Source of the DNA: a virus
Length of the DNA stretch: 40,754 bases
Strand: one strand, 5' to 3'
UHGV virus genome: UHGV-1474357
Shown: positions 15,447-38,485 of the stretch, piece after piece
Layout of the letters: each line of letters starts with the position of its first letter
Position numbering within the stretch: the first letter of the stretch is position 1
The notes under the pieces: generated by a model
What the model was told of the DNA's origin: nothing
Database searches by the model: none
What the model saw: the letters and a program-made list of their open reading frames with translations, nothing else
Position numbers and translations under genes: made by a program

Positions 15447-15455
15447 GATCTCACC

Positions 15456-16147: not shown

Positions 16148-16354
16148 ATGTGCATGGGTAGCTCACCATCAGTGCCTGCAACACCAGAAGTTCAGGCAGC
16201 ACCACAGGAGCAGGATGCCGCCGTTGTTGATGCCCGCGACGAAGAAACACGTCGCCGTCGCGCTGCTGCTGGTCGTAGTTCTACGCTGCTTACCGGTTCT
16301 CAGGGCGACACATCAACCGCTAATACCAGCGGTAAAACGCTGCTTGGTCAGTAA
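16148..16354 (+). CDS. Hypothetical small protein (68 aa) upstream of portal
   Basis: GGAG SD before ATG 16148; low-complexity Arg/Ala/Thr-rich product; co-oriented with portal. Confidence 0.4.
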   Translation: MCMGSSPSVPATPEVQAAPQEQDAAVVDARDEETRRRRAAAGRSSTLLTGSQGDTSTANTSGKTLLGQ

Positions 16355-16368
16355 CCGGAGTCATTGAA

Positions 16369-18048
16369 ATGGCGGAAACAACTAAAGAGCGATTGAACAA
16401 ACAGTTCGCACAACTTGAAAGCGAGCGTCAGTCGTTCGAGCCGCACTGGCGCGAGTTGAGTGATTACATCAACCCGCGTGGTTCCCGCTTTCTGACTTCT
16501 GAGGTTAACCGTAACGATCGACGCAATACACGCATTATTGATTCGACCGGGACTATGGCGGCGCGCACTCTCGCCAGCGGCATGATGTCAGGCATCACAA
16601 GCCCCGCGCGTCCGTGGTTTCGCCTGGCTACGCCAGATCCTGAAATGATGGATTATGGCCCTGTTAAGTTGTGGCTTGAGGCGGTGCAGAACCGCATGAA
16701 CGATATGTTCAATAAGTCGAATCTCTATCAGTCGCTGCCGCAGTTATACGGAAGCCTCGGCACATACAGCACTGGTGCAATGGCAGTGCTGGAGGATGAC
16801 GAGGACATCATTCGCACAATGCCATTCCCGATAGGCAGTTACTACCTGGCTAACTCACCTCGTGGCAGTGTGGACACCTGTTTTCGCAAGTTCTCTATGA
16901 CTGTTCGTCAGCTTGTTCAGGAGTTCGGGCTAAATAACGTCAGCGAATCCGTAAAAAGCATGTGGGAAAGCGGCACCTACGAGAAGTGGATTGAAGTGAT
17001 GCATTCGGTTTACCCGAACATTGACCGCGATACATCGAAGCTGGATAGCAAGAACAAGCCATTCAAATCGGTTTATTACGAGGTTGGTGGCGATAACGAC
17101 AAGTTGTTGCGTGAGTCCGGATTCGATGAGTTTCCAATTATGGCCCCGCGCTGGGAAGTTAACGGCGAAGATGTTTATGGATCATCATGCCCGGGTATGC
17201 TGGCGCTTGGACCTGTTAAGGCATTGCAGCTTCTCCAGAAGCGCAAGTCGCAGTTGATTGATAAAGCCACCAATCCGCCGATGGTTGCTCCGAATTCCCT
17301 CAAGAATCAGCGTGCCTCCCTTCTTCCTGGCGACATCACGTATATCGATCAGATTACTGGTCAGGATGGTTTCAGGCCTGCTTATCTGGTTAACCCCAGT
17401 ACAGCAGATTTGGTGGCAGACATTCAGGACACTCGTCAAATCATTAACAGCGCCTACTTTGTCGATCTGTTCATGATGTTGCAGAACATCAATACCCGCT
17501 CGATGCCTGTGGAAGCGGTGATCGAAATGAAAGAAGAAAAACTTCTGATGTTGGGGCCGGTTCTGGAGCGCCTGAACGACGAATGTCTTAATCCTCTCAT
17601 TGATCGCTCTTTCTCGATGATGGTGCGTAAAAACATGCTGCCGCCACCGCCTGACGCGATGGAAGGCATGCCCCTGAAGGTCGAATACATTTCCGTCATG
17701 GCTCAGGCGCAGAAGTCTATCGGCCTGTCCAGTCTGGCGTCCACGGTTAACTTCATTGGTCAACTTGCGCAAGCGAAACCAGAAGCTCTCGACAAACTCA
17801 ACGTTGATCAGGCGATCGATGCATTCGCTGATATGTCCGGAGTGTCTCCAACCGTCATTGTTCCGCAGGAACAGGTTGAGCAGGCTCGCCAGCAACGGGC
17901 ACAGCAACAACAGCAGCAACAAATGATGGCGATGGGGATGGCGGCGGCACAGGGTGCCAAGACGCTAAGCGAAGCTAAAACTTCGGATCCGAGTGTTTTG
18001 TCAGCTATGGCGAATGCAGTTAGTGGTCAGGGTGGGCAATCACAATGA
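16369..18048 (+). CDS. Portal protein (T7 gp8-like head-to-tail connector)
   Basis: 559 aa, size and position (before scaffold and capsid) as in T7-like modules; Gln-rich C-terminal tail; sequence recognised as head-tail connector family from memory. Confidence 0.75.
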   Translation: MAETTKERLNKQFAQLESERQSFEPHWRELSDYINPRGSRFLTSEVNRNDRRNTRIIDSTGTMAARTLASGMMSGITSPARPWFRLATPDPEMMDYGPVKLWLEAVQNRMNDMFNKSNLYQSLPQLYGSLGTYSTGAMAVLEDDEDIIRTMPFPIGSYYLANSPRGSVDTCFRKFSMTVRQLVQEFGLNNVSESVKSMWESGTYEKWIEVMHSVYPNIDRDTSKLDSKNKPFKSVYYEVGGDNDKLLRESGFDEFPIMAPRWEVNGEDVYGSSCPGMLALGPVKALQLLQKRKSQLIDKATNPPMVAPNSLKNQRASLLPGDITYIDQITGQDGFRPAYLVNPSTADLVADIQDTRQIINSAYFVDLFMMLQNINTRSMPVEAVIEMKEEKLLMLGPVLERLNDECLNPLIDRSFSMMVRKNMLPPPPDAMEGMPLKVEYISVMAQAQKSIGLSSLASTVNFIGQLAQAKPEALDKLNVDQAIDAFADMSGVSPTVIVPQEQVEQARQQRAQQQQQQQMMAMGMAAAQGAKTLSEAKTSDPSVLSAMANAVSGQGGQSQ

Positions 18049-18341
18049 CAGATTACGAAGACGATCAACTGAAAGAAGAAAACGCCCGTAAGCAACGTGA
18101 CATGGCACAGCGTGAAATTGATGACATTCGCTTTGTCATGAGCAGTGAACAGGGGCGTCGCGTTGTCTGGTCGGTGCTGGAGAAAGGCCGTGTGTTTTCC
18201 GCTATCTCACCGATGGACGCTATGGCAATGGCATTTAATGAGGGGCAACGCAATCTGGCGCTGGAACTGTTTCAGCGCGTTATGGCGCATTGCCCTGAAC
18301 AGTATTTGAAGATGGCCAAAGAGGCCAGTGAACAGGAGTGA
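18045..18341 (+). CDS. Hypothetical protein (98 aa)
   Basis: ATG overlaps portal stop (ATGA); acidic N-terminus. Confidence 0.55.
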   Translation: MTDYEDDQLKEENARKQRDMAQREIDDIRFVMSSEQGRRVVWSVLEKGRVFSAISPMDAMAMAFNEGQRNLALELFQRVMAHCPEQYLKMAKEASEQE

Positions 18342-18343
18342 TC

Positions 18344-19039
18344 ATGAATTTATTTGAGCGTTTGCTGTATCGCCGTCTTTGCAATGAGCAACCAGTCGAT
18401 GGTGGAGCAGCTCCGGCTGCGTCAGAACCGTCAGCGCCTGCAGGTGATAACCCTGCTCCAGTTGGTGATCCATCACAACAGGAAGGTGATAAGCCACAAC
18501 CTGTTGCTGATGGCGATAAACCTGCTGATGACAAAAAGCCTGAAAACGATAAGCAGGATGAAAAAAAGGACGGCGATAAACCAGAGGGTGCGCCTGAAAA
18601 GTACGAGTTTCAGGCTGCCGAAGGCGTAGAGCTGGATACAGAAGCGTTGAAGGAATTCGAGCCGGTGGCGCGAGAACTAAACCTGACCAACGAGCAAGCG
18701 CAAAAGCTGGTTGATGCTTATCCGAAGATTCTGGCAGGTGTTCAGCAGCGCCAGGCAGAAGCCTGGCAGAAAACAACCGAGCAGTGGGCTGCGGATGTAA
18801 AAGCTGACAAAGAAATCGGTGGCGACAAGTTGATTTCTAACCTTAGCGCCGCACAGCGTGCGCTTGACCAGTTCGGGACACCTGAACTCAAAGAATATCT
18901 GAACACCACCGGGCTGGGTAATCACCCTGATCTGGTCAAAACGTTCGTGAAAATCGGAAAGGCGATGTCTGAAGATGGCATGGTCACCGGTGGTAATGAA
19001 GGCCAGCGTAGTGCGGCCGAAGTGCTCTATGGCAAATAA
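18344..19039 (+). CDS. Scaffolding protein (putative)
   Basis: 231 aa, highly acidic/Pro-Ala rich N-terminal half and helical C-terminal half; located between portal and capsid; GGAG SD. Confidence 0.6.
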   Translation: MNLFERLLYRRLCNEQPVDGGAAPAASEPSAPAGDNPAPVGDPSQQEGDKPQPVADGDKPADDKKPENDKQDEKKDGDKPEGAPEKYEFQAAEGVELDTEALKEFEPVARELNLTNEQAQKLVDAYPKILAGVQQRQAEAWQKTTEQWAADVKADKEIGGDKLISNLSAAQRALDQFGTPELKEYLNTTGLGNHPDLVKTFVKIGKAMSEDGMVTGGNEGQRSAAEVLYGK

Positions 19040-19053
19040 GAGAGGAAATGACA

Positions 19054-20040
19054 ATGGCTGTTAAAGGCTTAACTGCGCTAACGCTGGCTGACTGGGGTAA
19101 GCGCGTCGATCCAAACGGGAAAGTCGATAAGATTATCGAGCTTCTCGGTCAAACTAACCCGATCCTTCAGGATATGCCCTTTGTCGAAGGGAACCTTCCT
19201 ACCGGACACCGAACCACCATTCGTTCTGGTTTACCTTCAGCTACCTGGCGTTTGCTGAACTATGGCGTACAGCCAAGCAAATCAACCACAGTGCAGGTAA
19301 CCGATTCCGTTGGCATGCTGGAAACCTATGCTGAAGTCGATAAGTCACTGGCTGATCTGAACGGCAATACCGCTGAATTCCGCCTGTCTGAAGACCGCGC
19401 ATTTATTGAAGCGATGAATCAGCAGATGGCGCAGACGCTGTTTTATGGTGATTCCAGCGTTAACCCTCAGCAGTTTATGGGACTGTCCTCCCGCTATTCC
19501 AGCCTGTCTGCGGGTAATGCTCAGAACATCATTGATGCTGGTGGCACGGGTACAGATAACACCTCAATCTGGTTAGTGGTGTGGGGCGAAAACACCGTGC
19601 ATGGCATCTTCCCGAAAGGGCAGAAGGCTGGCATCCAGATGGAAGATAAAGGCCAGGTGACACTGGAAGATGCTAATGGCGGCAAGTACGAAGGCTATCG
19701 CACCCATTACAAATGGGATAACGGACTTGCTCTGCGTGACTGGCGTTATGTTGTTCGCATTGCAAACATCGATGTCAGCAATCTTTCAGAACCATCCTCT
19801 GCCGCAAATATTGCCAAGTTGATGGTTAAGGCACTGCATCGCATTCCAAACCGTGGCATGGGCCGCCCGGTGTTCTACATGAACCGCACTGTAGGCCAGG
19901 CTCTTGATCTGCAATCTCTGGAGAAAACATCTCTGGCTATCAGCGTAAAAGAGACAGAAGGCGAGTGGTGGACTTCATTCCGTGGTGTACCAATCCGTGA
20001 AACTGATGCGCTTCTGGAAACAGAAGCCCGCGTGGTGTAA
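19054..20040 (+). CDS. Major capsid protein
   Basis: 328 aa; position after scaffold; followed by a hairpin. Alternative ATG at 19048. Confidence 0.75.
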   Translation: MAVKGLTALTLADWGKRVDPNGKVDKIIELLGQTNPILQDMPFVEGNLPTGHRTTIRSGLPSATWRLLNYGVQPSKSTTVQVTDSVGMLETYAEVDKSLADLNGNTAEFRLSEDRAFIEAMNQQMAQTLFYGDSSVNPQQFMGLSSRYSSLSAGNAQNIIDAGGTGTDNTSIWLVVWGENTVHGIFPKGQKAGIQMEDKGQVTLEDANGGKYEGYRTHYKWDNGLALRDWRYVVRIANIDVSNLSEPSSAANIAKLMVKALHRIPNRGMGRPVFYMNRTVGQALDLQSLEKTSLAISVKETEGEWWTSFRGVPIRETDALLETEARVV

Positions 20041-20056
20041 CGCCTGTTATTAACCT

Positions 20057-20076: not shown

Positions 20077-20091
20077 TAATGGAGAAAGAAG

Positions 20092-20529
20092 ATGATCACC
20101 GACAAACTGTTGATGTTCTCCGAAGCTCAGGCGGTTACGAATACCGCGGCTTCTACTGACGTAATCGATCTCGGTCCAATTGACGGAAAACGTCGTGATA
20201 TCGGCGTGGGTTACCCGCTTGAGTTTTGGGCGCTGGTTAACACAGCCGCCGCGGCAAGCGGTGATGCAACTGTAAACATCCAGTTGCAGACGAGTGAGAA
20301 TAACAGCTCATGGACCACTATTTATGATAGTGGCGCACTGGCAAAGACCGCCCTGACAGCAGGTAAACGAGTTGTTTCTGCAAAGGTGCCTGCCGGTGTT
20401 CAGCGATATCTGCGTGTTAACTACTCCGTCGCAACTGGCCCACTAACGGCTGGCAAATTCACTGCGGGTATCAGTCTGGATGTTGATGCCAATACGCCGT
20501 ACCCGATCCGCTCAAAAGTAACTGGTTAA
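20092..20529 (+). CDS. Hypothetical virion protein (145 aa), possible capsid decoration protein
   Basis: Located immediately after major capsid gene; Ala/Thr/Gly-rich beta-type composition. Confidence 0.5.
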   Translation: MITDKLLMFSEAQAVTNTAASTDVIDLGPIDGKRRDIGVGYPLEFWALVNTAAAASGDATVNIQLQTSENNSSWTTIYDSGALAKTALTAGKRVVSAKVPAGVQRYLRVNYSVATGPLTAGKFTAGISLDVDANTPYPIRSKVTG

Positions 20530-20539
20530 GGTGATATCG

Positions 20540-20875
20540 ATGTCAGGTGAGAAACCAAGATACCGCGTTCTGCGCCTCTCTCATATCCATAACACTCTGT
20601 GGCCGGAGGGGGCAGAAATCGAATACGAAGGTGAGCCTGGTAGCGCACTGGAACCTGTTAACGATGCAGCCAGACAGGCAAAAGCAAAAGTTGCAGGAAA
20701 GGTGTCAATGGCAGCAACCAGCACCAAAATCATCAACGATGTGTCAGATGATGGTGAACTGGATAAGCTCCGTGAAGAGTACGAATTGCTCTTTAACGAG
20801 AAGCCACACCATAACGCCAAAGCCGAAACGCTACGCGAGAAGATCGCAGATAAGCGTAAAGAACTGGGCGTGTAA
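20540..20875 (+). CDS. Hypothetical protein (111 aa)
   Basis: ATG 20540 with AAGGTGA SD; followed by intrinsic terminator. Confidence 0.5.
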   Translation: MSGEKPRYRVLRLSHIHNTLWPEGAEIEYEGEPGSALEPVNDAARQAKAKVAGKVSMAATSTKIINDVSDDGELDKLREEYELLFNEKPHHNAKAETLREKIADKRKELGV

Positions 20876-20893
20876 GCCTCGCGAATCAGACAA

Positions 20894-20913
20894 GGGGCTT
20901 CGGCCCCTTTATT
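20894..20913 (+). terminator. Intrinsic terminator between head and tail gene blocks
   Basis: GGGGC-TTCG-GCCCC followed by TTTATT. Confidence 0.65.
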
Positions 20914-20931
20914 GCAGGAGTATAGAAACTT

Positions 20932-21537
20932 ATGGCCTCTGTAGTAGAGATCTGCAATCGTGCGCTGTCCAATATTGGCAACAGCCGCAGCATTAACAGC
21001 CTGACGGAAGCCAGCAAGGAAGCGGGGGAATGTTCGCTGCACTTTGAGGCCTGCCGTGATGCTGTGCTTTCTGATTTTGACTGGAACTTTGCTACCAAAC
21101 GCGTGGCGCTTGCAGATACGAGCAATCCACCGCCTGACTGGGAATATGCGTACCAGTACCCGTCAGATTGTCTGCGCATTACTGAAATTATGCTTCCTGG
21201 TGTACGCAATCCAACAGCAGCAATGCGCGTTCAGTACGAAGTTGGTGCAGACACCAACGGAACAGGAAAGTTGATCTACACAGACCAGCCGCAGGCATGG
21301 CTCAAGTATGTCTCTCGCGTTTCAGATGTGAACATGTTTGATGCCATTTTTATGGAGGCGTTGGCCTGGCGTCTTGCGGCAGCTATTAACATGGCGCTGA
21401 CTGGGAATGCAGACCTCGGTACGTTTGCCCTCAATATGTACAATCGCGTGATTCTTAGTGCTGGCTCGCATAGCCAGAATGAATCACAGGAACCACAGCC
21501 ACCGGTTGATGAGTTTACCATTGCGAGGTTGTCCTGA
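20932..21537 (+). CDS. Tail tubular protein A-like (T7 gp11-like), putative
   Basis: 201 aa; size and position match T7 gp11 in a gp11-gp12-gp13-gp14-gp15-gp16-gp17 syntenic series. Confidence 0.55.
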   Translation: MASVVEICNRALSNIGNSRSINSLTEASKEAGECSLHFEACRDAVLSDFDWNFATKRVALADTSNPPPDWEYAYQYPSDCLRITEIMLPGVRNPTAAMRVQYEVGADTNGTGKLIYTDQPQAWLKYVSRVSDVNMFDAIFMEALAWRLAAAINMALTGNADLGTFALNMYNRVILSAGSHSQNESQEPQPPVDEFTIARLS

Positions 21538-24008
21538 TGGCTATCAGTTGGATCCAGCCCAGCTTTGCCGGTGGTGAGATTGGACCGTCGTTGTACGGGC
21601 GTATTGACATGGCGAAGTACCAGGTGGCATTGCGCAAGTGCGATAACTTTATCGTGCGGCAGTATGGCGGTGTTGAGAATCGACCTGGTACGCGTTTTGT
21701 CGGTGCCGCCAAATACCCAAATCGGAAATGCCGCCTGATCCCGTTCCAGTTCTCGACTGTTCAGACCTATGCTCTGGAGTTCGGACACCAGTACATGCGC
21801 GTTATCAAAGATGGTGCGTTGGTGCTGAACAGCAGCAATGTTATTTATGAAATTGCCACGCCATATACTGAAGCCGATCTGTTCCGAATTAAATTCACGC
21901 AAAGCGCCGACGTGCTTACGCTGGTTCATCCGGCATACCCGCCGAAAGAGTTGCGTCGCTATGCGCATGACAACTGGCAACTGGTTGATGTGGTAACGAA
22001 GAACGGGCCATTTGAAGATATCAATATTGACGAGTCAGTGACGGTTTATGCCAGCGCCAGCACCGGGACAATTACGTTAACGGCAAGCGCCTCTATTTTT
22101 GGCGCGGAGCAGGTAGGCAAATTGTTCTATCTGGAACAGCCTGCAGTGGATTCTGTGCCAGTATGGGAAACCAGTAAGAGTACGTCAATTGGCGATATTC
22201 GCCGTGCAGACAGTAACTACTATCGCGCCGTTACAGTAGGCAAAACAGGCACTTTGCGCCCTTCGCATACAGAAGGCACATCATGGGATGGCTGGGGCGG
22301 ATCCGGTGATGATGATACCGGCATTGAGTGGGAGTATCTGCACAGTGGTTTTGGCATTGCCCGTATCTCTGCTGCAAATGGAACTACTGCAACTGCCGAG
22401 GTGATTTCCTATATCCCTTCGCAGGTAGTTGGCGAGGATAATGCCAGCTATAAATGGGCTAAATATGCCTGGAACAGTGTTAATGGTTATCCTGGCACTG
22501 TTGTTTATTATCAACAACGTCTTTACTTCGCCGCATCGACTGCGTTTCCTCAGACTATCTGGGCCAGCCGTACCGGGGATTATAAGGATTTTGGCAAAAG
22601 CAATCCTACGCAGGATGACGACAGAATTATCTACACCTATGCCGGGCGTCAGGTTAATGAGATCCGTCACCTGATTGATGTTGGTTCGCTGGTGGCGCTG
22701 ACTTCCGGAGGTGAGTACGTCATCACTGGCGACCAGAACAAAGTGCTTACCCCATCATCATTTGCATTCAGCTCTCAGGGATCAAATGGCTCGAGCAATG
22801 TCCCACCAATTGCCGTGGCGAATATTGCTCTGTTCGTCCAGGAGAAAGGCAGTGTTGTCCGTGATCTGGCCTACTCATTCGATGTTGACGGCTATCAGGG
22901 GAACGACCTTACTATCCTTGCCAATCATCTTTTTCAGAAGCACAGCATTGTTGACTGGTGCTTCTCAATAGTCCCTTACTCCAGCGCCTTCTGCATCCGT
23001 GATGACGGTAAATTACTGGTGATGACCTATTTGCGTGATCAGCAGGTTTTTGCATGGGCACCACAATCCAGTACTGGAAAATATGAAAGCACATGCAGTA
23101 TCAGCGAAGGCAATGAAGATGCGGTGTATTTCGTCGTTAACCGAACCGTTAACGGGCAAACAGTGAGATACATCGAGCGACTGTCCAGCCGTTTATTTAC
23201 CAGCGATGAAGATGCTTTCTTTGTTGATTCTGGCCTTAGCTATGATGGAAGAAATACGTCTGACAGAACGATGATCATCACTGGTGGTTCTGGCGAATGG
23301 GATTACCGCGCGGAATATACAATCAGTGTTTCTGGTGGTGCGTACTTCACCAGTAGTGATGTCGGCGCGCAACTACAGTTCCCTTATACCGGAACTGATC
23401 CTGATACTGGCGATGAGGTGTCAAAAGAATTACGTTGCGACATTATTTCTGTAACCAGCAATACCGCTGTAGTGGTTCGTGCTAACAGGAACGTCCCGCC
23501 ATCCCTCAGGAATGTGGCCACCACGAACTGGCAGATGGCGCGCCGGACATTTGGAGGCCTGTCTCATCTTGAAGGCCAGACCGTAAACATTCTCTCTGAT
23601 GCGAACGTGGAACCACAGAAAGTGGTTTCCGGAGGTGCCGTCACGCTGGAATCACCGGGGGCTGTAGTGCACATCGGCCTGCCAATAACTGCTGAATTCG
23701 AAACACTGGATATCAACATTAACGGACAGGAAACGCTGCTGGACAAAAAACAGGTGATCCCGTCCGTTACTCTGGTTGTGAATGCCAGTCGCGGCATCTG
23801 GGCGACTACGCCCGGCGGTAAATGGTACGAATATCCACAGCGTGAATTCGAGTTCTACGATGATCCTGTTGATGATGCTACCGGAAAAGTAGAAGTGAAA
23901 CTGGACAGTAACTGGGGCAAAAACGGACGTGTAAAAATCCGTCAGCTTGATCCGTTGCCGCTGTCTGTTCTTGCCGTTATTCCTCGCCTTACTGTTGGTG
24001 GGTTCTGA
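21537..24008 (+). CDS. Tail tubular protein B-like (T7 gp12-like), putative
   Basis: 823 aa; size and position match T7 gp12; start overlaps previous stop. Confidence 0.65.
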   Translation: MAISWIQPSFAGGEIGPSLYGRIDMAKYQVALRKCDNFIVRQYGGVENRPGTRFVGAAKYPNRKCRLIPFQFSTVQTYALEFGHQYMRVIKDGALVLNSSNVIYEIATPYTEADLFRIKFTQSADVLTLVHPAYPPKELRRYAHDNWQLVDVVTKNGPFEDINIDESVTVYASASTGTITLTASASIFGAEQVGKLFYLEQPAVDSVPVWETSKSTSIGDIRRADSNYYRAVTVGKTGTLRPSHTEGTSWDGWGGSGDDDTGIEWEYLHSGFGIARISAANGTTATAEVISYIPSQVVGEDNASYKWAKYAWNSVNGYPGTVVYYQQRLYFAASTAFPQTIWASRTGDYKDFGKSNPTQDDDRIIYTYAGRQVNEIRHLIDVGSLVALTSGGEYVITGDQNKVLTPSSFAFSSQGSNGSSNVPPIAVANIALFVQEKGSVVRDLAYSFDVDGYQGNDLTILANHLFQKHSIVDWCFSIVPYSSAFCIRDDGKLLVMTYLRDQQVFAWAPQSSTGKYESTCSISEGNEDAVYFVVNRTVNGQTVRYIERLSSRLFTSDEDAFFVDSGLSYDGRNTSDRTMIITGGSGEWDYRAEYTISVSGGAYFTSSDVGAQLQFPYTGTDPDTGDEVSKELRCDIISVTSNTAVVVRANRNVPPSLRNVATTNWQMARRTFGGLSHLEGQTVNILSDANVEPQKVVSGGAVTLESPGAVVHIGLPITAEFETLDININGQETLLDKKQVIPSVTLVVNASRGIWATTPGGKWYEYPQREFEFYDDPVDDATGKVEVKLDSNWGKNGRVKIRQLDPLPLSVLAVIPRLTVGGF

Positions 24009-24472
24009 TGATCGATGTTCAAATTATTCCCGCAACCGAAGAGCATCTTCAGATGATTTTGCCGGATGTTCGTCAGGCTGATATTGACGAACTGTATGCG
24101 GTATCACTGATGACTACCGAAGATGCGCTGCGTGTTGGTCTGCGTACTTCGACTATGGCCTGGTCAGGATTTGCGAACGGAGAACTGGTAACCATGTTTG
24201 GCGTATCTCCGGCGTCAATGATCGGTGGCAATGGTACGCCCTGGCTGGTAGGAACCAGCCGTATTGAAAAATATCAGAAGACATTTCTTCGCCACTGCCG
24301 CCCTGTATTGCAGCAGATGCTGGCAGTTTATCCGCGCCTGGAAAACTACGTCGACGAGCGAAACCATGTTGCCAAAGCATGGCTGCACTGGCTTGGATTC
24401 AGGCTTGAAGAAGCCGCGCCTTATGGTGCTCTTGGTCTTAATTTCCACAGATTTCACATGGAGAGAAAATAA
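24008..24472 (+). CDS. Internal virion protein A-like (T7 gp13-like), putative
   Basis: 154 aa; synteny only. Confidence 0.5.
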   Translation: MIDVQIIPATEEHLQMILPDVRQADIDELYAVSLMTTEDALRVGLRTSTMAWSGFANGELVTMFGVSPASMIGGNGTPWLVGTSRIEKYQKTFLRHCRPVLQQMLAVYPRLENYVDERNHVAKAWLHWLGFRLEEAAPYGALGLNFHRFHMERK

Positions 24473-31183: not shown

Positions 31184-31184
31184 G

Positions 31185-32036
31185 ATGAAAAAAATAAATT
31201 TGTTTTTTGGCATAGTGCTTTCAATAGTCTCTGTAAATCCTACAGCTGCCAGTTCATTGCAATGCAATAAGGATAACTTTGATGCATGCAAAACGTGTGA
31301 ACAATTATCAAAGGCTATCGACTTAAAAGAACCTAATCGTGGCGATTACTATAGAGGGGCTTTATGGAATGGGCTTTACGCCTCTTATGTAATTAATTGC
31401 CCTGTGGTTGCTGAGAAGTTACTGAGCCATGGTGCTATACCATCATATGGCGGATATATGGGGTCTATGGGGGCGGTTCTGACAGGAAAATGGCCTCATA
31501 ACAATGAATCAATAAATCTTTCATGGGCAGATTTGCTTATAAAACATGGATTTGATGTTAATAGGCATACGGGGAATTATAAATCAGCTACTGAAGTATG
31601 GGCTATAGATAAAAAACAGATTGAATATAAGTCAGTTTTTGACAAGTTAATTCAATCCAGCGAAGTAAAACCACTCGATCCTTCAAGAAATTTAGAATGG
31701 TGTGCGTCTGAAGGGTATCGCTCAGTTGTCGTTTATTCCCTTAACTCATGTATAGAAAATGCTATAAAACGTTTGGATGATGGTGTTTCTTCAGCGTCTG
31801 ATATTTCATCAGCAGCCGTAAATTCCTGTACTAGCGATGTAGAAAATTTCAATAAGCATTTGGCATGCAAAGCAGCTGTTAAAGAAAACTCTGATAAAGA
31901 GAGAAGCGACGTTTACCAGTTATTAACCAGTGATAGTCAAATGAATAAAAATGTTATTGATATGCTGAAGGAAAGAAATATTGAAACGGTTCTTGAATTT
32001 AGAGCTGAAAATCGATCAGCGAAAACTGCACAGTGA
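31185..32036 (+). CDS. Secreted protein with ankyrin-like repeats (AT-rich cargo gene)
   Basis: N-terminal signal peptide (MKKINLFFGIVLSIVSVNPTAAS); repeat-like segments LLSHGAIPS and LLIKHGFDVNRHTGN; clearly lower GC than flanking virion genes; strong terminator follows. Confidence 0.55.
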   Translation: MKKINLFFGIVLSIVSVNPTAASSLQCNKDNFDACKTCEQLSKAIDLKEPNRGDYYRGALWNGLYASYVINCPVVAEKLLSHGAIPSYGGYMGSMGAVLTGKWPHNNESINLSWADLLIKHGFDVNRHTGNYKSATEVWAIDKKQIEYKSVFDKLIQSSEVKPLDPSRNLEWCASEGYRSVVVYSLNSCIENAIKRLDDGVSSASDISSAAVNSCTSDVENFNKHLACKAAVKENSDKERSDVYQLLTSDSQMNKNVIDMLKERNIETVLEFRAENRSAKTAQ

Positions 32037-32057: not shown

Positions 32058-32065
32058 CCTTGTTT

Positions 32066-32227
32066 TTAACGAATGCCACCGCCACCCGGGCGGGAATCCG
32101 CAGAACGCCCACCGCAGCGGGAGCCGTCAGCAGCAGTGTCGCTGTCGTGCTGACAACGACCGGCAAAGGCCTGAGTTGAAGCTACCAGAGACAACAAAAC
32201 GAACAGTGCAGCAAATGCTTTTTTCAT
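32066..32227 (-). CDS. Putative small secreted protein (53 aa)
   Basis: Internal ATG gives MKKAFAALFVLLSLVASTQAFA signal-peptide-like N-terminus; -35/-10-like TTGACG / TATAGA upstream; weak SD, so low confidence. Confidence 0.3.
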   Translation of the reverse strand: MKKAFAALFVLLSLVASTQAFAGRCQHDSDTAADGSRCGGRSADSRPGGGGIR

Positions 32228-32300
32228 TGTGAAATTTCCATCTATAAGCCACCTCAATGTGGCGTCAATGAGTGTAGCACTGACTTTTGTTTCGTCCATA

Positions 32301-32323
32301 AAAAAGCCCTCAGTGCGGGCTTA
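32301..32323 (-). terminator. Intrinsic terminator after the two-gene cassette
   Basis: Minus-strand hairpin AAGCCCGCACTGAGGGCTT followed by TTTTT. Confidence 0.5.
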
Positions 32324-32698
32324 ATTAACTTCGAGGATAATAGAATCTTTAGACTTGAATCCCACTTTCCTCATGGCTGTAATGACGTTTTGGATAACCC
32401 ACGTTTTCCCAAACTCTCTTTCGTGTACAATGGCGCAAGGAAAATGAAGGGCGCTTTTGTTGCACTTTATGGTGAAAGTTGTACCTTCAGCAAAATCCAA
32501 AACAGTCTGCAGATGTGCAGATATAAACGATTTAAACACATCTTCAAGCTCAGCAAGAGTAATTGGCGGTTTGTTCCTCTCGTCGTTCAGGCGTTCATAT
32601 GCTGCGTGAAATGAAAAGTGAATTCTTGCCGCATCTTCTTGCAAGATCTCGTTAATCTCATCCTCAAGATCAATGAGTTGTTGTTCTGTTATAGACAT
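32321..32698 (-). CDS. Hypothetical protein (125 aa), second gene of overlapping two-gene cassette
   Basis: ATG 32698 overlaps the upstream gene end by 10 nt; acidic helical N-terminus; AT-rich. Confidence 0.55.
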   Translation of the reverse strand: MSITEQQLIDLEDEINEILQEDAARIHFSFHAAYERLNDERNKPPITLAELEDVFKSFISAHLQTVLDFAEGTTFTIKCNKSALHFPCAIVHEREFGKTWVIQNVITAMRKVGFKSKDSIILEVN

Positions 32699-32907
32699 AG
32701 ATAACGGGAGGTCGCCTCACTTATTTTTTGATTTAATTCATCATCATTGGATGCACGTACAGTAGCAACATGCTTACTTTGGCGTAGGGTCCCAATTCTG
32801 ATATCAAATTCTTCATTATCGAAAGAGTCAACGAAAACAGCTTTACCAGTTTCTGGATGGTAAAAAGAGGCATAGTTTTGGTTGAGTTGCATATCAAATT
32901 TAAACAT
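32689..32907 (-). CDS. Hypothetical protein (72 aa), first gene of overlapping two-gene cassette
   Basis: Strong SD GGGAGGA before ATG 32907; dyad operator about 118 bp upstream. Confidence 0.55.
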   Translation of the reverse strand: MFKFDMQLNQNYASFYHPETGKAVFVDSFDNEEFDIRIGTLRQSKHVATVRASNDDELNQKISEATSRYLCL

Positions 32908-33024
32908 ATCATCCTCCCATACGGGAACAGACGTGACTTACATACGGTGTGATTTTGACTAGTTAACTTTCTGCAGCAAAACCATCACGGTAACTACAAA
33001 CTAAAATGTTACAAATCAACTTTC

Positions 33025-33039
33025 TTACCTTTGGGGTAA
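33025..33039. promoter_or_regulatory. TTACC-N5-GGTAA dyad (TTACCTTTGGGGTAA)
   Basis: Perfect arms; on the minus strand it sits 5 nt upstream of a TTGATT -35-like hexamer ahead of the two-gene cassette. Confidence 0.45.
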
Positions 33040-33065
33040 TAGTACGCTATTCACCTGCAATCTGT

Positions 33066-33090
33066 ACAGAATTATTTAAAGGCACATCCC
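33066..33090 (-). terminator. Hairpin after antirepressor-like gene
   Basis: Minus-strand GGCACAGGGATGTGCC followed by TTTAAATAATT. Confidence 0.4.
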
Positions 33091-33105
33091 TGTGCCGCCG
33101 TTCTG

Positions 33106-33762
33106 TCAGAAGACCCCTGCCTTGTCGTTGATGTATTCCGCGTGGGTCTGGATATCACGCAGGCATTTACTCACACCGACGATGTAGCAGAACATGGTAG
33201 TCAGCTCCGCCGCCGCGCCCGATACGTCGTGCCCGTCGTCCTGTAACTGGTTCAGCAGATTCATCAGCAGTGAGTTCTCCGTCAGGCCGAGAACACCAGA
33301 TGGGGAATGAATCAGGCTGCGGTAGCCGGGCTTCAGTGGGGCGCTGTATTCTTTTTTGTCTTCCAGCTTGATCGCCTCCATAATGGCGGGCATGAAGCCT
33401 GACAAGACCTTCTCCACTTTTGTTTCTTGTTGTCTTAAACGTTTCTCGCATTCAATGAAGTAGCGTCGCACCTGGCGACCTTTTTCGTTACGCTCGACCA
33501 TCGCCAGCTCTTTGGCTGTATCAAGGGTGAGGTGGTACTCTTTGCGGTTGTGGCCGCCTCTACCAGATGTTTGCTTTCCCAAATTGGAAAGCAAAATATA
33601 GTCTTGATTTTCAATGAATTCGTATTCTGATATGCGATTTGTAATCCATGCTGCAAACACCTTTTTAACACCTAAAAAAGCGTGCAGATCGCGGGCATTA
33701 CAAAGTAGGGCTGTTTCGTTAGATATAGTGCCGTTGAATACGGGGATGAGTTGAGCGTTCAT
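33106..33762 (-). CDS. Antirepressor-like protein (Bro-N/AntA-like N-terminal domain, Ant C-terminal domain)
   Basis: 218 aa; N-terminus [27 protein letters not shown] and central [26 protein letters not shown] resemble phage antirepressor families; GGAG SD; C-terminal 70 aa homologous to the small gene at 34913-35170. Confidence 0.7.
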
Positions 33763-33920
33763 GATGGCGTCTCCACTTAGCGAATTACATCACCACCGCT
33801 GAGACCAATCAGATGGTGGTGAACTGAACGGAGTTGGTCTTACCGGCCTAAGTGGTACCGGCGTCCTTTCGGACCCCCATTCAGCCCACCATAATTCTGG
33901 CATGACTGTGCTATACGCAT

Positions 33921-34030
33921 AAAAAAACCACGTCTGGCGTGGTATGCGCCACTTAGTAATCCGGGAGACCAATCCCGGCACTGGATTTTGCCAGTGCCCG
34001 ATTACTATGGCACAAGAGGAGTGCAATGTA
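33921..34030 (-). ncRNA. Candidate structured leader / small RNA with intrinsic terminator upstream of antirepressor gene
   Basis: Minus-strand hairpins GGCACTGG-CAAAAT-CCAGTGCC and CCGGGA-TTGGTC-TCCCGG, then terminator ACCACGCC-AGA-CGTGGT plus TTTTTTT (33921-33943); promoter-like TTGATT / TTATCA hexamers at about 34081-34049 and a dyad operator at 34034-34048; no credible ORF. Confidence 0.3.
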
Positions 34031-34033
34031 AAT

Positions 34034-34048
34034 TTACCGCAAAGGTAA
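34034..34048. promoter_or_regulatory. TTACC-N5-GGTAA dyad (TTACCGCAAAGGTAA)
   Basis: Perfect arms; directly abuts the -10-like hexamer of the putative leftward ant promoter. Confidence 0.45.
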
Positions 34049-34126
34049 TGATAAACGCGAAGAAATATTAAAATCAACCGTATTTGGTTGATTGCGTTTA
34101 ACGCTTGATCACCTGAAAGCAAGATA

Positions 34127-34141
34127 TTACCTTTAAGGTAA
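34127..34141. promoter_or_regulatory. TTACC-N5-GGTAA dyad (TTACCTTTAAGGTAA)
   Basis: Perfect arms; 20 nt upstream of ATG 34162. Confidence 0.45.
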
Positions 34142-34161
34142 TGTTATTGTGAGGAAAAGCA

Positions 34162-34890
34162 ATGGAAGTTTTCTGGATAGTTGTTGGTGTGGTTGCGGTG
34201 ATTATTTACGTTATCAACCAGAACAAGACTAAGATCTCTGATCGTACGGTCGTTAATCATAACAAAACGATAAAGACCGAAGATGGGGAGATAACGATTA
34301 ATCGTACACAGGTGATAGAACACACCTCTACTCAGTTTCAAAAAACTGGAGGTAATGCGCCTAATATTTCCGCACCTCCTGCTTATGATAGTGCGGTAAT
34401 CCAGACATATTATAAACAGCAGGAGTTAGCAAAAGAGAGGCAACTGATTCAGCCAAAGCCGTTTACAGCTGAGCTTCCACCTGGAGTGTCAACGCGTCCG
34501 GCATATCATGGAAGATTCCCTGGTGATGACATATCGTCTCAGTCATCTAAAAAAGCACCTCAGGCAGTATCAGAGCCAGCAAGAATACCTTCTGTATCGC
34601 CGCCAAAAGAAGAATCAGCTAACAGAGTTTCAAGTGGTAGCAAGCAGTGCTTGCGATGCAGAATAAACCTACCATATGAAAAATTCAGGAAATCGTCAAA
34701 AAATCCAGATGGATTGACTAAGTGGTGTGCAAGGTGTCTCGATGGCCCAAAGAATACACGCCATATGAAGTGGTGCCCAATTTGTAATGTCCGCAGAAAA
34801 CGAACAAGCTTTTACCCTAATAATCAAAATGCGGATGGCTTAATGGCATGGTGCAAAACGTGCTGGGACGAGCACAAAGCGAAACGATAG
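34162..34890 (+). CDS. Membrane-anchored protein with repeated zinc-ribbon-like motifs
   Basis: N-terminal TM helix (VFWIVVGVVAVIIYVI); C-terminal repeats of C-x2-C...NPDGL..WC..C (CLRCRINLPYEKFRKSSKNPDGLTKWCARC; CPICNVRRKRTSFYPNNQNADGLMAWCKTC); AT-rich; bidirectional terminator follows. Confidence 0.6.
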   Translation: MEVFWIVVGVVAVIIYVINQNKTKISDRTVVNHNKTIKTEDGEITINRTQVIEHTSTQFQKTGGNAPNISAPPAYDSAVIQTYYKQQELAKERQLIQPKPFTAELPPGVSTRPAYHGRFPGDDISSQSSKKAPQAVSEPARIPSVSPPKEESANRVSSGSKQCLRCRINLPYEKFRKSSKNPDGLTKWCARCLDGPKNTRHMKWCPICNVRRKRTSFYPNNQNADGLMAWCKTCWDEHKAKR

Positions 34891-34914
34891 GCCGCTCTTG
34901 CGGCCTTTAAATTT
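34890..34914. terminator. Bidirectional intrinsic terminator between convergent genes
   Basis: GGCCGC-TCTT-GCGGCC flanked by A/T runs; stem nearly identical to the terminator at 32033-32057. Confidence 0.6.
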
Positions 34915-35170
34915 ACCGGGTTTGTTTTCGTAATTGTTCGGCACAATAGTCGAGATGTGTTTGCAGATCCTGCATAGACATCTGTGAGCTGGTGACGTAG
35001 TTAATCAGTGCAGTCAGTTCGGCAAGTGGGCCATCGACATTAAATCCATCCTTATCGAGATCCCGGAGTAATTTCATCAAGTGCGATCCCTCCACCAGTG
35101 ACCTGACGCCTCCCGGCGTGTGAATCCTTTCGGTAAATCCGTCTTCCAGTGGATAGTGATACTGCTGCAT
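34913..35170 (-). CDS. Small protein (85 aa) homologous to the antirepressor C-terminal domain; candidate SOS-controlled antirepressor
   Basis: About 40% identity by eye to residues about 150-218 of the 33106-33762 product (shared PL, IH.P.GV, LM.LL, DG..V.G, AELT, D.QTH..Y); GGAG SD; LexA box 19 bp upstream of the ATG. Confidence 0.6.
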   Translation of the reverse strand: MQQYHYPLEDGFTERIHTPGGVRSLVEGSHLMKLLRDLDKDGFNVDGPLAELTALINYVTSSQMSMQDLQTHLDYCAEQLRKQTR

Positions 35171-35188
35171 CTTATCTTCTCCATGCAA

Positions 35189-35210
35189 TAACTGTATGTT
35201 TATACAGTAA
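35189..35210. promoter_or_regulatory. LexA (SOS) box TAACTGTATGTTTATACAGTAA
   Basis: Matches CTGT-N8-ACAG with AT-rich spacer and TA flanks (consensus TACTGTATATATATACAGTA); contains TATAAA -10-like hexamer on the minus strand; positioned 19 bp upstream of ATG 35170. Confidence 0.6.
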
Positions 35211-35246
35211 CAAATAATTTGTTTGCTATCCAGCACGTTTTGCAAA

Positions 35247-35261
35247 TTACCCGAAAGGTAA
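35247..35261. promoter_or_regulatory. TTACC-N5-GGTAA dyad (TTACCCGAAAGGTAA)
   Basis: Perfect arms; between the LexA-boxed small gene and the tailspike gene. Confidence 0.45.
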
Positions 35262-35365
35262 TATCTATTGGTATTTACAGTCTTTTTATCCATATATGGT
35301 TTTTCAGGTAATAGAATAACCAGATATGCGGCGCAACGGGTGCTGCGACTATCTGGAGATTTAAC

Positions 35366-38300
35366 ATGACGGTCTCAACCGAAGTTGACCACAACGAATA
35401 CACCGGTAACGGCGTTACGACATCGTTTCCGTATACTTTTCGAATTTTCAGAAAATCAGACCTGGTTGTTCAGGTGTCTGACCTGAACGGGAACGTAACA
35501 GAATTGGTCCTGGATACCGGTTATACGGTAACTGGGGCGGGCACTTATAGTGGCGGTTCTGTGGTTCTTCCGTCTCCGCTTGCTACTGGATGGCGAATTA
35601 CGATAGATCGTGTGCTTGATGTAGTGCAGGACACAGACCTTCGCAATCAGGGAAAATTTTTCCCCGAAGTGCATGAAGATGCCTTTGACTACCTGACGAT
35701 GCTGATCCAGCAATGTTTTGGGTGGTTCAGACGTGCATTGATGAAACCATCTTTGCTTGCAAAATATTACGATGCAAAGCAAAACAAAATTTCTAACCTT
35801 GCAGATCCATCATTTGAGCAGGACGCTGTAAATAATCGCTCAATGCGTAATTATGTCGATGCTGCAATCGCCGGAGTTGTTGGTGGTTTTGGTTGGTTTA
35901 TTCAGTATGGTTCTGGGGCTGTGTACCGAACGTTCCAGGATAAAATGCGTGATGCTATTAGCCCCAAAGATTTTGGAGCTGTTGGTGATGGTATAAATGA
36001 CGATTCCACTGCAATAAGCGCGTGCCTTGAAGCCTCATCTCCAGGTTATAAAATTGACGGATTAGGGCTTACTTTTAAAGTATCAACTCTTCCGGATGTC
36101 AGTCGATTTAAAAATGCTCGTTTTTTATTTGAGAGAATACCGGGCCAGCCTCTTTTTTATGCTTCTGAAGATTTTATCCAGGGAGAGTTATTTAAAATTA
36201 CAGATACACCGTGGTACAACGCCTGGACGCAGGATAAAACGTTTGTATATGACAATGTCATCTATGCGCCTTTTATGGCTGGAGACCGCCATGGTGTAAA
36301 TAACCTCCATGTTGCATGGGTTCGCTCAGGAGATGACGGGAAGACCTGGACAACGCCGGAATGGCTTACAGATTTACATGAAAACTATCCCACAGTTAAC
36401 TATCACTGCATGAGTATGGGGGTTGTCAGAAATCGCCTTTTTGCTGTAATTGAGACGCGGACCGTGAGAGGAAATAAACTGCAGGTTGCAGAGTTGTGGG
36501 ATCGCCCAATGAGTCGCAGCCTTCGCGTTTATGGTGGTATAACGAAAGCAGCAAATCAGCAAGTCGCTTATATTCGCATTACTGATCACGGATTATTTGC
36601 TGGTGATTTTGTCAACTTCTCAAACTCTGGTGTTACAGGTGTTACCGGGAATATGACGGTGACTACTGTTATTGATAAAAATACCTTTACAGTTACGACG
36701 CAAAATACCCAGGATGTGGATCAGAATAACGAGGGTAGATACTGGAGTTTTGGCACATCATTTCACTCGTCACCATGGAGAAAAACCAGTCTTGGAACTA
36801 TTCCTTCTTTTGTTGACGGAAGCACTCCTGTTACTGAGATTCACAGTTTTGCGACGATTAGCGATAACAGTTTTGCTGTTGGCTACCATAATGGTGATAT
36901 TGGTCCACGCGAGCTTGGGATACTCTATTTCTCTGATGCTTTCGGTTCTCCTGGTAGCTTTGTTCGCAGACGCATACCTGTAGAATATGAGGCGAATGCA
37001 TCTGAGCCATGTGTAAAATATTATGATGGCATTCTGTATCTGACGACCAGGGGGACATTAAGTACTCAACCCGGTAGTTCATTGCACAGAAGCTCTGATT
37101 TAGGTACATCATGGAATTCTCTTCGCTTCCCAAATAATGTTCATCACTCAAACCTTCCTTTTGCCAAAGTTGGCGATGAGCTGATTATTTTTGGCAGTGA
37201 GCGCGCATTTGGTGAGTGGGAAGGAGGAGAACCTGATAACCGTTATGCAGGAAATTATCCAAGAACATTTATGACCAGAGTTAACGTCAATGAGTGGAGT
37301 CTGGATAATGTAGAGTGGGTTAATGTTACTGATCAGATTTATCAGGGCGGAATAGTTAACTCTGCGGTTGGTGTTGGTTCAGTTTGTATCAAAGACAACT
37401 GGCTGTACTACATTTTCGGTGGGGAAGACTTTCTAAACCCATGGAGCATAGGGGATAACAACAGAAAATATCCTTATGTTCACGATGGTCACCCGGCTGA
37501 TTTGTATTGTTTCAGGGTGAAAATTAAACAGGAAGAATTTGTTTCAAGGGATTTTGTCTACGGAGCCACTCCTAACAGAACGCTTCCTACTTTTATGTCG
37601 ACGTCAGGCGTGAGGACGGTTCCTGTACCCGTTGATTTCACAGATGATGTTGCCGTCCAGTCACTGACTGTCCATGCAGGTACATCAGGACAAGTTCGCG
37701 CGGAAGTCAAACTTGAGGGTAATTACGCCATTATTGCGAAGAAAGTACCGTCTGATGATGTTACCGCTCAGAGATTAATCGTTAGCGGCGGTGAAACAAC
37801 GTCTTCAGCAGATGGTGCAATGATAACGTTGCATGGTTCCGTAAGCAGTACTCCACGTCGCGCGGTATATAACGCACTCGAACATCTTTTTGAGAACGGA
37901 GATGTTAAACCTTATCTTGATAATGTAAATGCTCTTGGTGGTCCGGGAAACAGGTTCTCGACAGTTTATCTTGGCTCCAATCCTGTGGTTACCAGTGACG
38001 GAACATTAAAGACAGAGCCGGTCTCTCCTGACGAAGCATTGCTGGATGCCTGGGGTGACGTCAGGTATATCGCTTATAAATGGCTGAACGCTGTCGCTAT
38101 AAAGGGGGAAGAAGGGGCGAGGATACATCATGGTGTAATCGCGCAGCAACTTCGTGATGTTCTTATTTCTCACGGACTCATGGAAGAAGAAAGCACAACA
38201 TGCCGCTATGCCTTTCTTTGCTATGACGATTATCCCGCAGTATATGATGACGTCATTACTGGCCAAAGGGAAATGCCGCTGACTGATAATGAAGGGAGCA

Positions 38301-38485
38301 TCATTGTTGATGAGGATGATAATCCAGTGATGGTAATGGAAGACATCATTGAGCGCGTTGAAATAACGCCAGCAGGATCTAGATGGGGGGTCAGACCTGA
38401 TCTCTTATTCTATATCGAGGCGGCATGGCAGCGCAGAGAAATGGATAAGATAAAAGAGCGGATTCAGTCTCTGGAAGAACGTTAA
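35366..38485 (+). CDS. Tailspike/tail fibre: T7 gp17-like N-terminal adaptor, sialidase-fold domain with Asp-boxes, C-terminal intramolecular chaperone domain; endosialidase-like
   Basis: 1039 aa; N-terminal conserved particle-binding pattern (FPYTF...DLRNQGKFFPEVHEDAFDYL); Asp-box motifs SGDDGKTW and SSDLGTSW; C-terminal segment (GVIAQQLRDVLISHGLMEEESTTCRYAFLCYDDY...) typical of auto-cleaving chaperone domains; GGAG SD. Confidence 0.8.
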   Translation: MTVSTEVDHNEYTGNGVTTSFPYTFRIFRKSDLVVQVSDLNGNVTELVLDTGYTVTGAGTYSGGSVVLPSPLATGWRITIDRVLDVVQDTDLRNQGKFFPEVHEDAFDYLTMLIQQCFGWFRRALMKPSLLAKYYDAKQNKISNLADPSFEQDAVNNRSMRNYVDAAIAGVVGGFGWFIQYGSGAVYRTFQDKMRDAISPKDFGAVGDGINDDSTAISACLEASSPGYKIDGLGLTFKVSTLPDVSRFKNARFLFERIPGQPLFYASEDFIQGELFKITDTPWYNAWTQDKTFVYDNVIYAPFMAGDRHGVNNLHVAWVRSGDDGKTWTTPEWLTDLHENYPTVNYHCMSMGVVRNRLFAVIETRTVRGNKLQVAELWDRPMSRSLRVYGGITKAANQQVAYIRITDHGLFAGDFVNFSNSGVTGVTGNMTVTTVIDKNTFTVTTQNTQDVDQNNEGRYWSFGTSFHSSPWRKTSLGTIPSFVDGSTPVTEIHSFATISDNSFAVGYHNGDIGPRELGILYFSDAFGSPGSFVRRRIPVEYEANASEPCVKYYDGILYLTTRGTLSTQPGSSLHRSSDLGTSWNSLRFPNNVHHSNLPFAKVGDELIIFGSERAFGEWEGGEPDNRYAGNYPRTFMTRVNVNEWSLDNVEWVNVTDQIYQGGIVNSAVGVGSVCIKDNWLYYIFGGEDFLNPWSIGDNNRKYPYVHDGHPADLYCFRVKIKQEEFVSRDFVYGATPNRTLPTFMSTSGVRTVPVPVDFTDDVAVQSLTVHAGTSGQVRAEVKLEGNYAIIAKKVPSDDVTAQRLIVSGGETTSSADGAMITLHGSVSSTPRRAVYNALEHLFENGDVKPYLDNVNALGGPGNRFSTVYLGSNPVVTSDGTLKTEPVSPDEALLDAWGDVRYIAYKWLNAVAIKGEEGARIHHGVIAQQLRDVLISHGLMEEESTTCRYAFLCYDDYPAVYDDVITGQREMPLTDNEGSIIVDEDDNPVMVMEDIIERVEITPAGSRWGVRPDLLFYIEAAWQRREMDKIKERIQSLEER

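Follow-up and report, generated by a model that had tools for sequence, protein, structure and literature searches.

Hardies et al. (2016, PMC4819975) described an "epsilon15 homology group" of phages that includes BPP-1, BcepC6B, VP5, and SC1. In that study, epsilon15 gp12 matched T7 gp12 in a comparison of hidden Markov models (E < 1e-10) and epsilon15 gp17 was recognized as a homologue of gp16, the internal virion protein termed IVP-D; a homologue of IVP-C could not be confirmed in epsilon15 by sequence, and the epsilon15 terminase and capsid grouped with those of siphoviruses. A T7-like core stack in epsilon15 was also noted in a 2022 review of ejection proteins (PMC8954989). The link between T7 and the tail and internal virion proteins of the epsilon15 group is thus already known, having been published in 2016. 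Salmonella phage epsilon15 and phiV10 are the type members of the genus Uetakevirus. Here we examined UHGV virus genome UHGV-1474357, a stretch of 40,754 nucleotides (referred to as the window), which an earlier note had read from its sequence as a T7-like virion module inside a lambdoid temperate backbone. We are highly confident that the window holds an apparently intact Escherichia coli prophage of the epsilon15/phiV10 group (Uetakevirus). Its pairing of temperate, lambda-like early genes with a tail and ejectosome of the T7 type is not a new mosaic but the ancestral architecture conserved in this group.

Comparison with known temperate podoviruses, a check that the earlier note had proposed, returned 96 to 98% DNA identity to Uetakevirus phages (megablast against deposited phages: PAS61, phiv142-3, HEMP4, ZX5, TL-2011b, EC.W1-9, and phiV10). 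The matches to PAS61, phiv142-3, phiV10, and EC.W1-9 extended over 58 to 82% of positions 1 to 16147 and over 40 to 80% of positions 16148 to 38485, and epsilon15 was ∼75% identical to the window over 31% (megablast). From the terminase through the gp14 homologue, protein identity to phiV10, TL-2011b, or EC.W1-9 was 95 to 100%. Close relatives of the prophage were found in IHE3034, APEC O18, and ST95 strains.

An exact 17-bp direct repeat, ATTGAGTGGGAATGATT, is present at positions 66 to 82 (attL core) and 40700 to 40716 (attR core), and the attP core that adjoins the integrase, attgagtgggaatgatt, is present in the window as these 17-bp repeats. Bases 1 to 81 translate to a peptide ending in GKPPATIEWE and a stop codon, which we take to be the C-terminus of GuaA, and the right flank of a closely related prophage in another genome carries yfgI-yfgH-yfgG-pdeF. 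Based on the repeats and their flanks, the prophage spans positions 66 to 40716 (40.65 kb), the integrase being located at the left and the lysis cassette at the right. The attP of phiV10, epsilon15, and ZX5 is the same 17-bp sequence (PMC9782041).

The window shares with phiV10 and epsilon15 the attP core, integrase, lambda-like early region, terminase, portal, capsid, adaptor, nozzle, gp13- and gp14-like proteins, tailspike anchor, and lysis cassette, and the shared proteins are 95 to 100% identical to those of phiV10 and 43 to 95% identical to those of epsilon15. It differs from them in four respects: the window lacks the gp10 staple gene that both carry; its ejection cassette encodes proteins of 915, 1129, and 283 amino acids (aa) instead of about 840, 600 to 630, and 820 to 920 aa; it contains no O-antigen-modifying genes; and its spike carries an endosialidase, whereas theirs are O-antigen specific. 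EC.W1-9 (PP445227) has the same head without gp10 and the same 915/1129/283 cassette, at 98 to 100% protein identity, but its receptor-binding domain, annotated as "eliminase," differs from that of the window. Phage vB_EcoP_ZX5 (ZX5; MW722083) matches 40% of positions 16148 to 38485 and differs elsewhere in the structural region. The window combines these two known variants, EC.W1-9 and ZX5.

The ten open reading frames (ORFs) from which the earlier note had drawn its parallel with T7 were recovered by ORF scan at the sizes and in the order given there, all on the plus strand between 16369 and 38485. Its ORF list, however, omits the 98-, 145-, 114-, and 283-aa genes of the same operon and the block at 32066 to 35293. 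To compare the virion proteins with those of T7, we aligned each role within a T7 group (T7, phiKMV, SP6, and P-SSP7) and within an epsilon15 group (epsilon15, BPP-1, VP5, BcepC6B, and Pseudomonas phage AF) and then ran hhalign all against all, as an 11 × 9 matrix. These diverse alignments were made from phage genomes since the listing of nozzle homologues gave only matches of ≥82% identity. All comparisons with an E of ≤0.001 fell on the predicted pairings, and the other 92, among them the three pairs without signal described below, had an E of ≥0.017. As judged from these profiles, the collinearity with T7 exceeds chance.

The strongest pairings were the nozzle with gp12 (E, 5.5e-12; probability, 97.5%; central domain, 250 to 517), the 154-aa protein with gp13 (E, 5.6e-12; 97.5%), the portal with gp8 (E, 2.9e-10; 96.8%; 478 columns), and the 1129-aa protein with gp16 (E, 1.2e-8; 95.6%). 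The adaptor paired with gp11 at an E of 4.5e-4 (33% probability; 172 columns, near full length), the next best value in its row being 0.45, and the 191-aa protein gave a weak match to gp14 (E, 0.017) that was the top of its row. No signal was obtained for the scaffold with gp9 (E, 0.25), the capsid with gp10 (E, 0.78), or the 915-aa protein with gp15 (E, 0.76). A profile check of the kind proposed by the earlier note thus bore out gp8, gp11, gp12, gp13, gp16, and, weakly, gp14, and gave nothing for gp9, gp10, and gp15; its T7-like virion module stands for the portal, tail, and internal proteins (hhalign, Pfam, and PHROG) and falls for the scaffold and capsid. The gp12 and gp17/gp16 results of Hardies et al., as well as the unconfirmed IVP-C, were independently reproduced here (epsilon15 gp17 matched gp16 in the matrix at an E of 1.1e-3). 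The features of their "transient tail homology group" are present in the window: a gp8-family portal, a gp11-like adaptor, and a gp12-like nozzle in order, and homologues of gp13, gp14, and gp16.

At the level of single sequences there was little to see. Window proteins searched against T7 by tblastn gave no match at an E of ≤0.01, and pairwise BLASTP against T7 gp11, gp12, gp15, and gp16 gave a sole match, between residues 700 to 783 of the 915-aa protein and residues 559 to 639 of gp15 (E, 0.002). Since these searches returned next to nothing, the relationship with T7 is seen only at the profile level.

The portal (559 aa; positions 16369 to 18048; coordinates here and below refer to the plus strand unless noted) belongs to the T7 gp8 family (Pfam PF12236, Head-tail_con; E, 5e-187), and it and T7 gp8 are reciprocal matches through phrog_332 and phrog_449. 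It is followed, after the head genes, by the tail adaptor or tubular tail protein A (201 aa; 20932 to 21537; T7 gp11-like), the tail nozzle or tubular tail protein B (823 aa; 21537 to 24008; T7 gp12-like), internal virion protein A (154 aa; 24008 to 24472; T7 gp13-like and, as T7 gp13, in phrog_308), internal virion or ejection protein B (191 aa; 24472 to 25047), an ejection protein at the gp15 position (915 aa; 25047 to 27794), and ejection protein D (1129 aa; 27794 to 31183). In the series from the adaptor to the 1129-aa gene, every start codon shares 1 nucleotide with the stop codon before it. The 191-aa protein matches the T7 gp14 family in Pfam (PF24072 T7_gp14; score, 33.7 bits; cutoff, 27) and had no match in the PDB (phmmer); its homologues in E. 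coli are named "virion core protein, T7 gp14 family" by PGAP. For epsilon15 gp11, an HHpred match to T7 gp11 (3j4b) is cited in the RefSeq note.

The closest relative with a solved portal, connector, nozzle, and tailspike anchor is Cobetia marina phage Carin-1 (PDB 8ck0 and 8ck1), whose identity we obtained indirectly, through the Dpo31 tailspike paper. Its portal (8ck0) matched the window portal at 598 bits, its "Connector Protein" (8ck1_E) matched the adaptor at 95 bits (E, 3e-26), its "Tail Nozzle" (8ck1_A) matched the nozzle at 726 bits, and its anchor matched that of the tailspike at 118 bits; the depositors' names are portal, connector, tail nozzle, and tail fibre. Carin-1 is a marine phage, and its depolymerase domain is unlike that of the window.

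The 1129-aa protein shares phrog_342 with T7 gp16, with coverage of profile positions 192 to 1227, and lacks the N-terminal lytic domain of gp16. Its C-terminal half matched the epsilon15 gp17 group (hhalign E, 1.6e-9), and a phmmer search of the PDB gave nothing meaningful. The 915-aa protein carries an inserted muralytic domain at residues ∼247 to 399, so that the muralytic domain lies in the protein at the gp15 position in the window but at the N-terminus of gp16 in T7. With an alignment of 20 sequences of the 915-aa protein, hhalign detected no signal to gp15 or gp16 of the T7 group, whether the alignment was used whole or divided into its N-terminal, lysozyme, and C-terminal parts. The top three Foldseek matches of its model were all T7 gp15, which hints at a relation to gp15 at the level of the predicted fold.

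The packaging genes lie upstream of the portal. TerS (12790 to 13464; Pfam Terminase_2) falls in phrog_51, whereas that of T7 is in phrog_1351, and TerL (13461 to 14936) scored 181 bits against phrog_2, close to Sf6 gp2 (195 bits) and far above T7 gp19 (only 33 bits), which is itself a member of phrog_38 (453 bits). Both are 99% identical to their phiV10 counterparts, and a phmmer search with TerL against the PDB gave no match. On these family assignments, the terminase belongs to the broad PHROG family that includes Sf6 gp2 and not to that of T7 gp19. The earlier note had held that the terminase genes were relocated from the T7 order; as TerL and TerS are not of the gp19 and gp18 families, that view does not survive. 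A tRNA-Arg(TCT) gene was identified by ARAGORN between the terminase and the portal (15644 to 15720, minus strand), antisense to the late operon, and the late structural operon opens with a gene (16148 to 16354) for a 68-aa homologue of epsilon15 gp3 (88% identical; 100% identical to phiV10 p06).

The head genes also depart from T7. Downstream of the portal are a Bbp19-like protein (98 aa; 18045 to 18341; Pfam PF25181), a probable scaffold (18338 to 19039; phrog_458; 233 aa from a GTG start or 231 aa from the in-frame ATG at 18344), the major capsid protein (330/328 aa; 19048 to 20040), which is of the epsilon15 gp7/BPP-1 Bbp17 type (Pfam PF20911 GP7; E, 2e-149), a Bbp16-like capsid cement or decoration protein (145 aa; 20092 to 20529; Pfam PF21190; E, 3e-47), and an epsilon15 gp9 homologue (114 aa; 20531 to 20875; phrog_590; 99% identical to phiV10 p12). 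The 233-aa protein is labelled "protease" in databases, but no protease domain was found in it by Pfam. Because of its position and its composition (the N-terminus is acidic and rich in Pro and Ala), we consider it probably the scaffold, an analogue of T7 gp9 with no detectable homology to it.

These results bear on whether the element is a recent chimera, in which a lambdoid prophage took the virion module of a lytic T7-like phage (Autographiviridae) and shifted the terminase genes. The gene order and sizes do match T7 gp8 to gp17, and several of the proteins are true homologues, with collinear counterparts of gp8, gp11, gp12, gp13, gp14, gp16, and the gp17 N-terminus in the window. However, the likeness to T7 proteins is confined to profiles, and the capsid, scaffold, and terminase are of other families; T7-type versions of these three Autographiviridae features were not detected in the window by hhalign or PHROG. 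T7 also differs in that its terminase is not upstream of the portal, and the window, besides being temperate, has an extra cement protein. A tblastn search with the portal matched 198 phage records, with no member of the T7 group among the names or rows listed.

Further, the layout is kept across distant temperate phages. BPP-1, BcepC6B, and AF share the order terS-terL-portal-Bbp19-scaffold-major capsid protein-Bbp16-adaptor-nozzle-ejection proteins-fibre, with portals 28 to 45% identical to that of the window (tblastn), although their early and replication modules, receptor-binding proteins, and hosts are unlike those of the window (BPP-1 has a T7-like DNA polymerase, primase, and gp2.5-like protein). 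Such a recent capture from a lytic phage is therefore very improbable. The mosaic is not unusual, as its layout is conserved in epsilon15, phiV10, BPP-1, BcepC6B, Pseudomonas phage AF, and VP5. The earlier note had called elements of this kind uncommon, which does not fit either: of 5,426 complete E. coli genomes, 504 carry the block from the adaptor to the gp14 homologue at ≥80% coverage. The 90%-identity cluster of the nozzle has 4,579 member sequences. For most of the tail and ejection genes the homology to T7 is genuine, but the element is an ordinary representative of a phage group that is both known and common.

The tailspike (1039 aa; 35366 to 38485) comprises a gp17-like anchor (residues 1 to ∼170), a K1 endosialidase (205 to 876), and a C-terminal intramolecular chaperone (Pfam match at 877 to 937). 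Its Pfam matches were End_N_terminal, End_beta_propel, End_beta_barrel, End_tail_spike, and Peptidase_S74. Matches to PF12217 (771 bits), PF12195, PF12219, PF12218, and PF13884 underlie the assignment of the beta-propeller catalytic domain, beta-barrel insert, stalk, and C-terminal chaperone. Residues 205 to 876 matched the K1F endosialidase EndoNF in the PDB (1v0e/3gvl, 1045 bits), the tailspike also matched 3gw6 (318 bits), and the N-terminus matched the gp17 N-termini of the T7 group (hhalign E, 5.5e-10), the first ∼170 residues having several PHROGs in common with the T7 gp17 N-terminus. The endosialidases of CUS-3 and K1F share with the window the catalytic beta-propeller, beta-barrel, stalk, and C-terminal chaperone, but the N-terminal particle-binding domain of the window is of the Uetakevirus type and not of the P22 type (CUS-3) or the K1F type. 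A temperate Uetakevirus with the same three-domain spike (T7-like anchor, endosialidase, and chaperone) has been described in ZX5 (PMC9782041). This receptor-binding module is common to unrelated temperate podovirus lineages, represented by the window prophage and CUS-3, as already reported for ZX5. The homologous endosialidase gene carries an annotated frameshift in strain CUVET20-PYO2 (NZ_CP115386.1, 8273 to 11391), indicating that some copies of the prophage are decaying.

The endosialidase-coding DNA (about 36064 to 38456) is 99.3% identical to siaK1 of CUS-3, which could suggest that the element is itself a P22-like (Lederbergvirus) prophage such as CUS-3, and TerL does score on the broad PHROG family to which Sf6 gp2 belongs. 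But the match to CUS-3 is limited to about 2.4 kb, the portal is of the PF12236 (T7 gp8) family and not of the P22 gp1 type, the capsid is of the epsilon15 gp7 type, and the tailspike anchor is 68 to 92% identical to the anchors of the Uetakevirus-type phages compared. A P22-like identity is so improbable that we give it almost no weight. The readings we rejected are a P22-like prophage, a recent T7 capture, and relocated T7 terminase genes.

Between the ejection genes and the tailspike lies a 3.3-kb regulatory or moron block, mostly on the reverse strand (32066 to 35293, minus strand). It contains an AntA/Bro-N antirepressor (33106 to 33762, minus strand; Pfam AntA), a homologue of epsilon15 gp19 (34913 to 35293, minus strand; 84% identical by tblastn with epsilon15 gp19), and, on the plus strand within the block, a Zn-ribbon protein of 242 aa (34162 to 34890). 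The latter has repeated Zn-ribbon-like segments, with weak matches to the endonuclease VII and Lar-like restriction-alleviation families.

The lambdoid temperate backbone described in the earlier note was confirmed by Pfam and ORFs: an integrase, a divergent repressor and cro, O/P-type replication genes, RecT and an exonuclease, and a holin-endolysin-Rz/Rz1 cassette are all present. The tyrosine integrase (273 to 1529) matches Arm-DNA-bind_3, Phage_int_M, and Phage_integrase in Pfam, and other matches in the left arm were a metallophosphatase, an MT-A70 methylase, RecT, a PD-(D/E)XK exonuclease, a DnaT/helix-turn-helix (HTH) "O-like" protein, lambda P, and Ead/Ea22. An HTH repressor of 194 aa (5902 to 6486, minus strand) is divergent from a Cro-like ORF of 76 aa (6641 to 6871). 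At the right end, the lysis cassette (38792 to 40589; Pfam) encodes two holins, a GH19 endolysin, and Rz (DUF2514), inside which an Rz1 lipoprotein is encoded in the +1 frame (lipobox LALAGC). The ORF scan found no ORF of >491 aa outside the structural genes that might encode a T7-type RNA polymerase, for which no dedicated profile search was made.

The repressor has two HTH-like regions and lacks an S24 peptidase domain, and the AntA/Bro-N antirepressor is encoded far from it, in the late region. Because of these two features, induction is suggested to proceed via the antirepressor and not via self-cleavage of the repressor.

The ejection cassette (25047 to 32036) is variable in the group, with at least three versions: 915, 1129, and 283 aa in the window and EC.W1-9; 905 and 1004 aa in TL-2011b; and three proteins in phiV10 and epsilon15. 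The genes flanking it are 95 to 100% identical to those of phiV10, TL-2011b, and EC.W1-9. The window cassette is of the EC.W1-9 type and is 29 to 42% identical to the TL-2011b pair, and by tblastn it was unrecognizable in phiV10 and epsilon15 save for the first ∼500 residues of the 915-aa protein (45%). Its third gene (31185 to 32036) begins 1 nucleotide past the stop codon of the gp16 homologue and encodes a Cys-rich, all-alpha protein of 283 aa with a signal-peptide-like N-terminus (alignment: invariant Cys and a hydrophobic leader). EC.W1-9 carries this gene, whereas phiV10, epsilon15, and TL-2011b lack it, and the family comprises 22 sequence clusters, all from Enterobacterales. The AlphaFold2 model was all-alpha (predicted local distance difference test score [pLDDT], 75), and Foldseek found no match to it in the PDB at an E of ≤0.001, with just weak ankyrin-like matches at an E of >1. 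We regard it as a speculative and rather unlikely idea that the 915/1129/283 cassette forms a functionally distinct ejectosome in which the 283-aa protein would serve either as a new component acting in the periplasm or as a factor, tied to the ejection proteins, for superinfection exclusion.

Two points weigh against our reading of the window as an apparently intact Uetakevirus prophage with a T7-type tail. First, the links of the adaptor to gp11 and of the 191-aa protein to gp14 are weak in hhalign with small alignments, and these links draw on Pfam, PDB naming, and published HHpred notes. Second, the alignment shows a clean absence of the gene for the epsilon15 gp10 capsid staple in the interval from 20875 to 20932, and epsilon15 gp10 and phiV10 p13 as tblastn queries had no match in the window. 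Since the staple is missing, the surface of the capsid departs from that in the epsilon15 structure. The counterparts of epsilon15 gp10 are p13 in phiV10 and gp32 in TL-2011b, and the Bbp16-like cement gene is retained in the window. The presence of gp10 is typical of epsilon15 and phiV10 and is not a criterion for the genus; the gene is also absent from EC.W1-9, BPP-1, BcepC6B, and AF.

Alternatively, the element could be a defective, noninducible remnant that has kept its structural genes. The missing gp10 gene would fit, as would the frameshifted tailspike of the close relative in CUVET20-PYO2. Yet both att cores are intact, none of the listed ORFs is truncated, and the structural operon runs in the same order as in EC.W1-9, a plaque-forming isolate that itself lacks gp10, each structural ORF being equal in length to its EC.W1-9 counterpart; BPP-1, BcepC6B, and AF likewise do without gp10. 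We consider a defective remnant unlikely and favor an apparently intact prophage.

Based on homology and on the published structures of epsilon15 and Carin-1, the genes of this prophage allow a model of the particle to be proposed. The prophage is integrated, through its own tyrosine integrase, at a 17-bp core that borders the host sequence on the left of the window. Its DNA would be packaged by a terminase of the broad Sf6 gp2 family into a predicted capsid of the epsilon15/BPP-1 type, with the HK97 fold and a Bbp16-like cement protein. The predicted tail is short and built on a gp8-family portal, its adaptor ring being gp11-like and its nozzle gp12-like, and the tailspikes would be attached through their gp17-like N-terminal domain. 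After adsorption, the packaged gp13-, gp14-, gp15-position, and gp16-like proteins would be ejected; the muralytic domain of the 915-aa protein would digest peptidoglycan, and, like those of T7, the ejected proteins would form a channel that crosses the envelope. The predicted host range is K1 E. coli, because the endosialidase of the tailspike degrades the polysialic acid capsule of K1 strains; the close prophage relatives in IHE3034, APEC O18, and ST95 strains agree with this specificity.

As a discovery these results are modest, since the window follows the epsilon15/phiV10 (Uetakevirus) design that has already been published. Their practical use lies in the gene-by-gene labelling of the window as a K1-capsule-specific temperate podovirus of E. 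coli of the extraintestinal pathogenic type. In addition, the window shows module exchange within the group: an endosialidase shared with CUS-3, alternative ejection cassettes, and a gp10 staple that is variably present.

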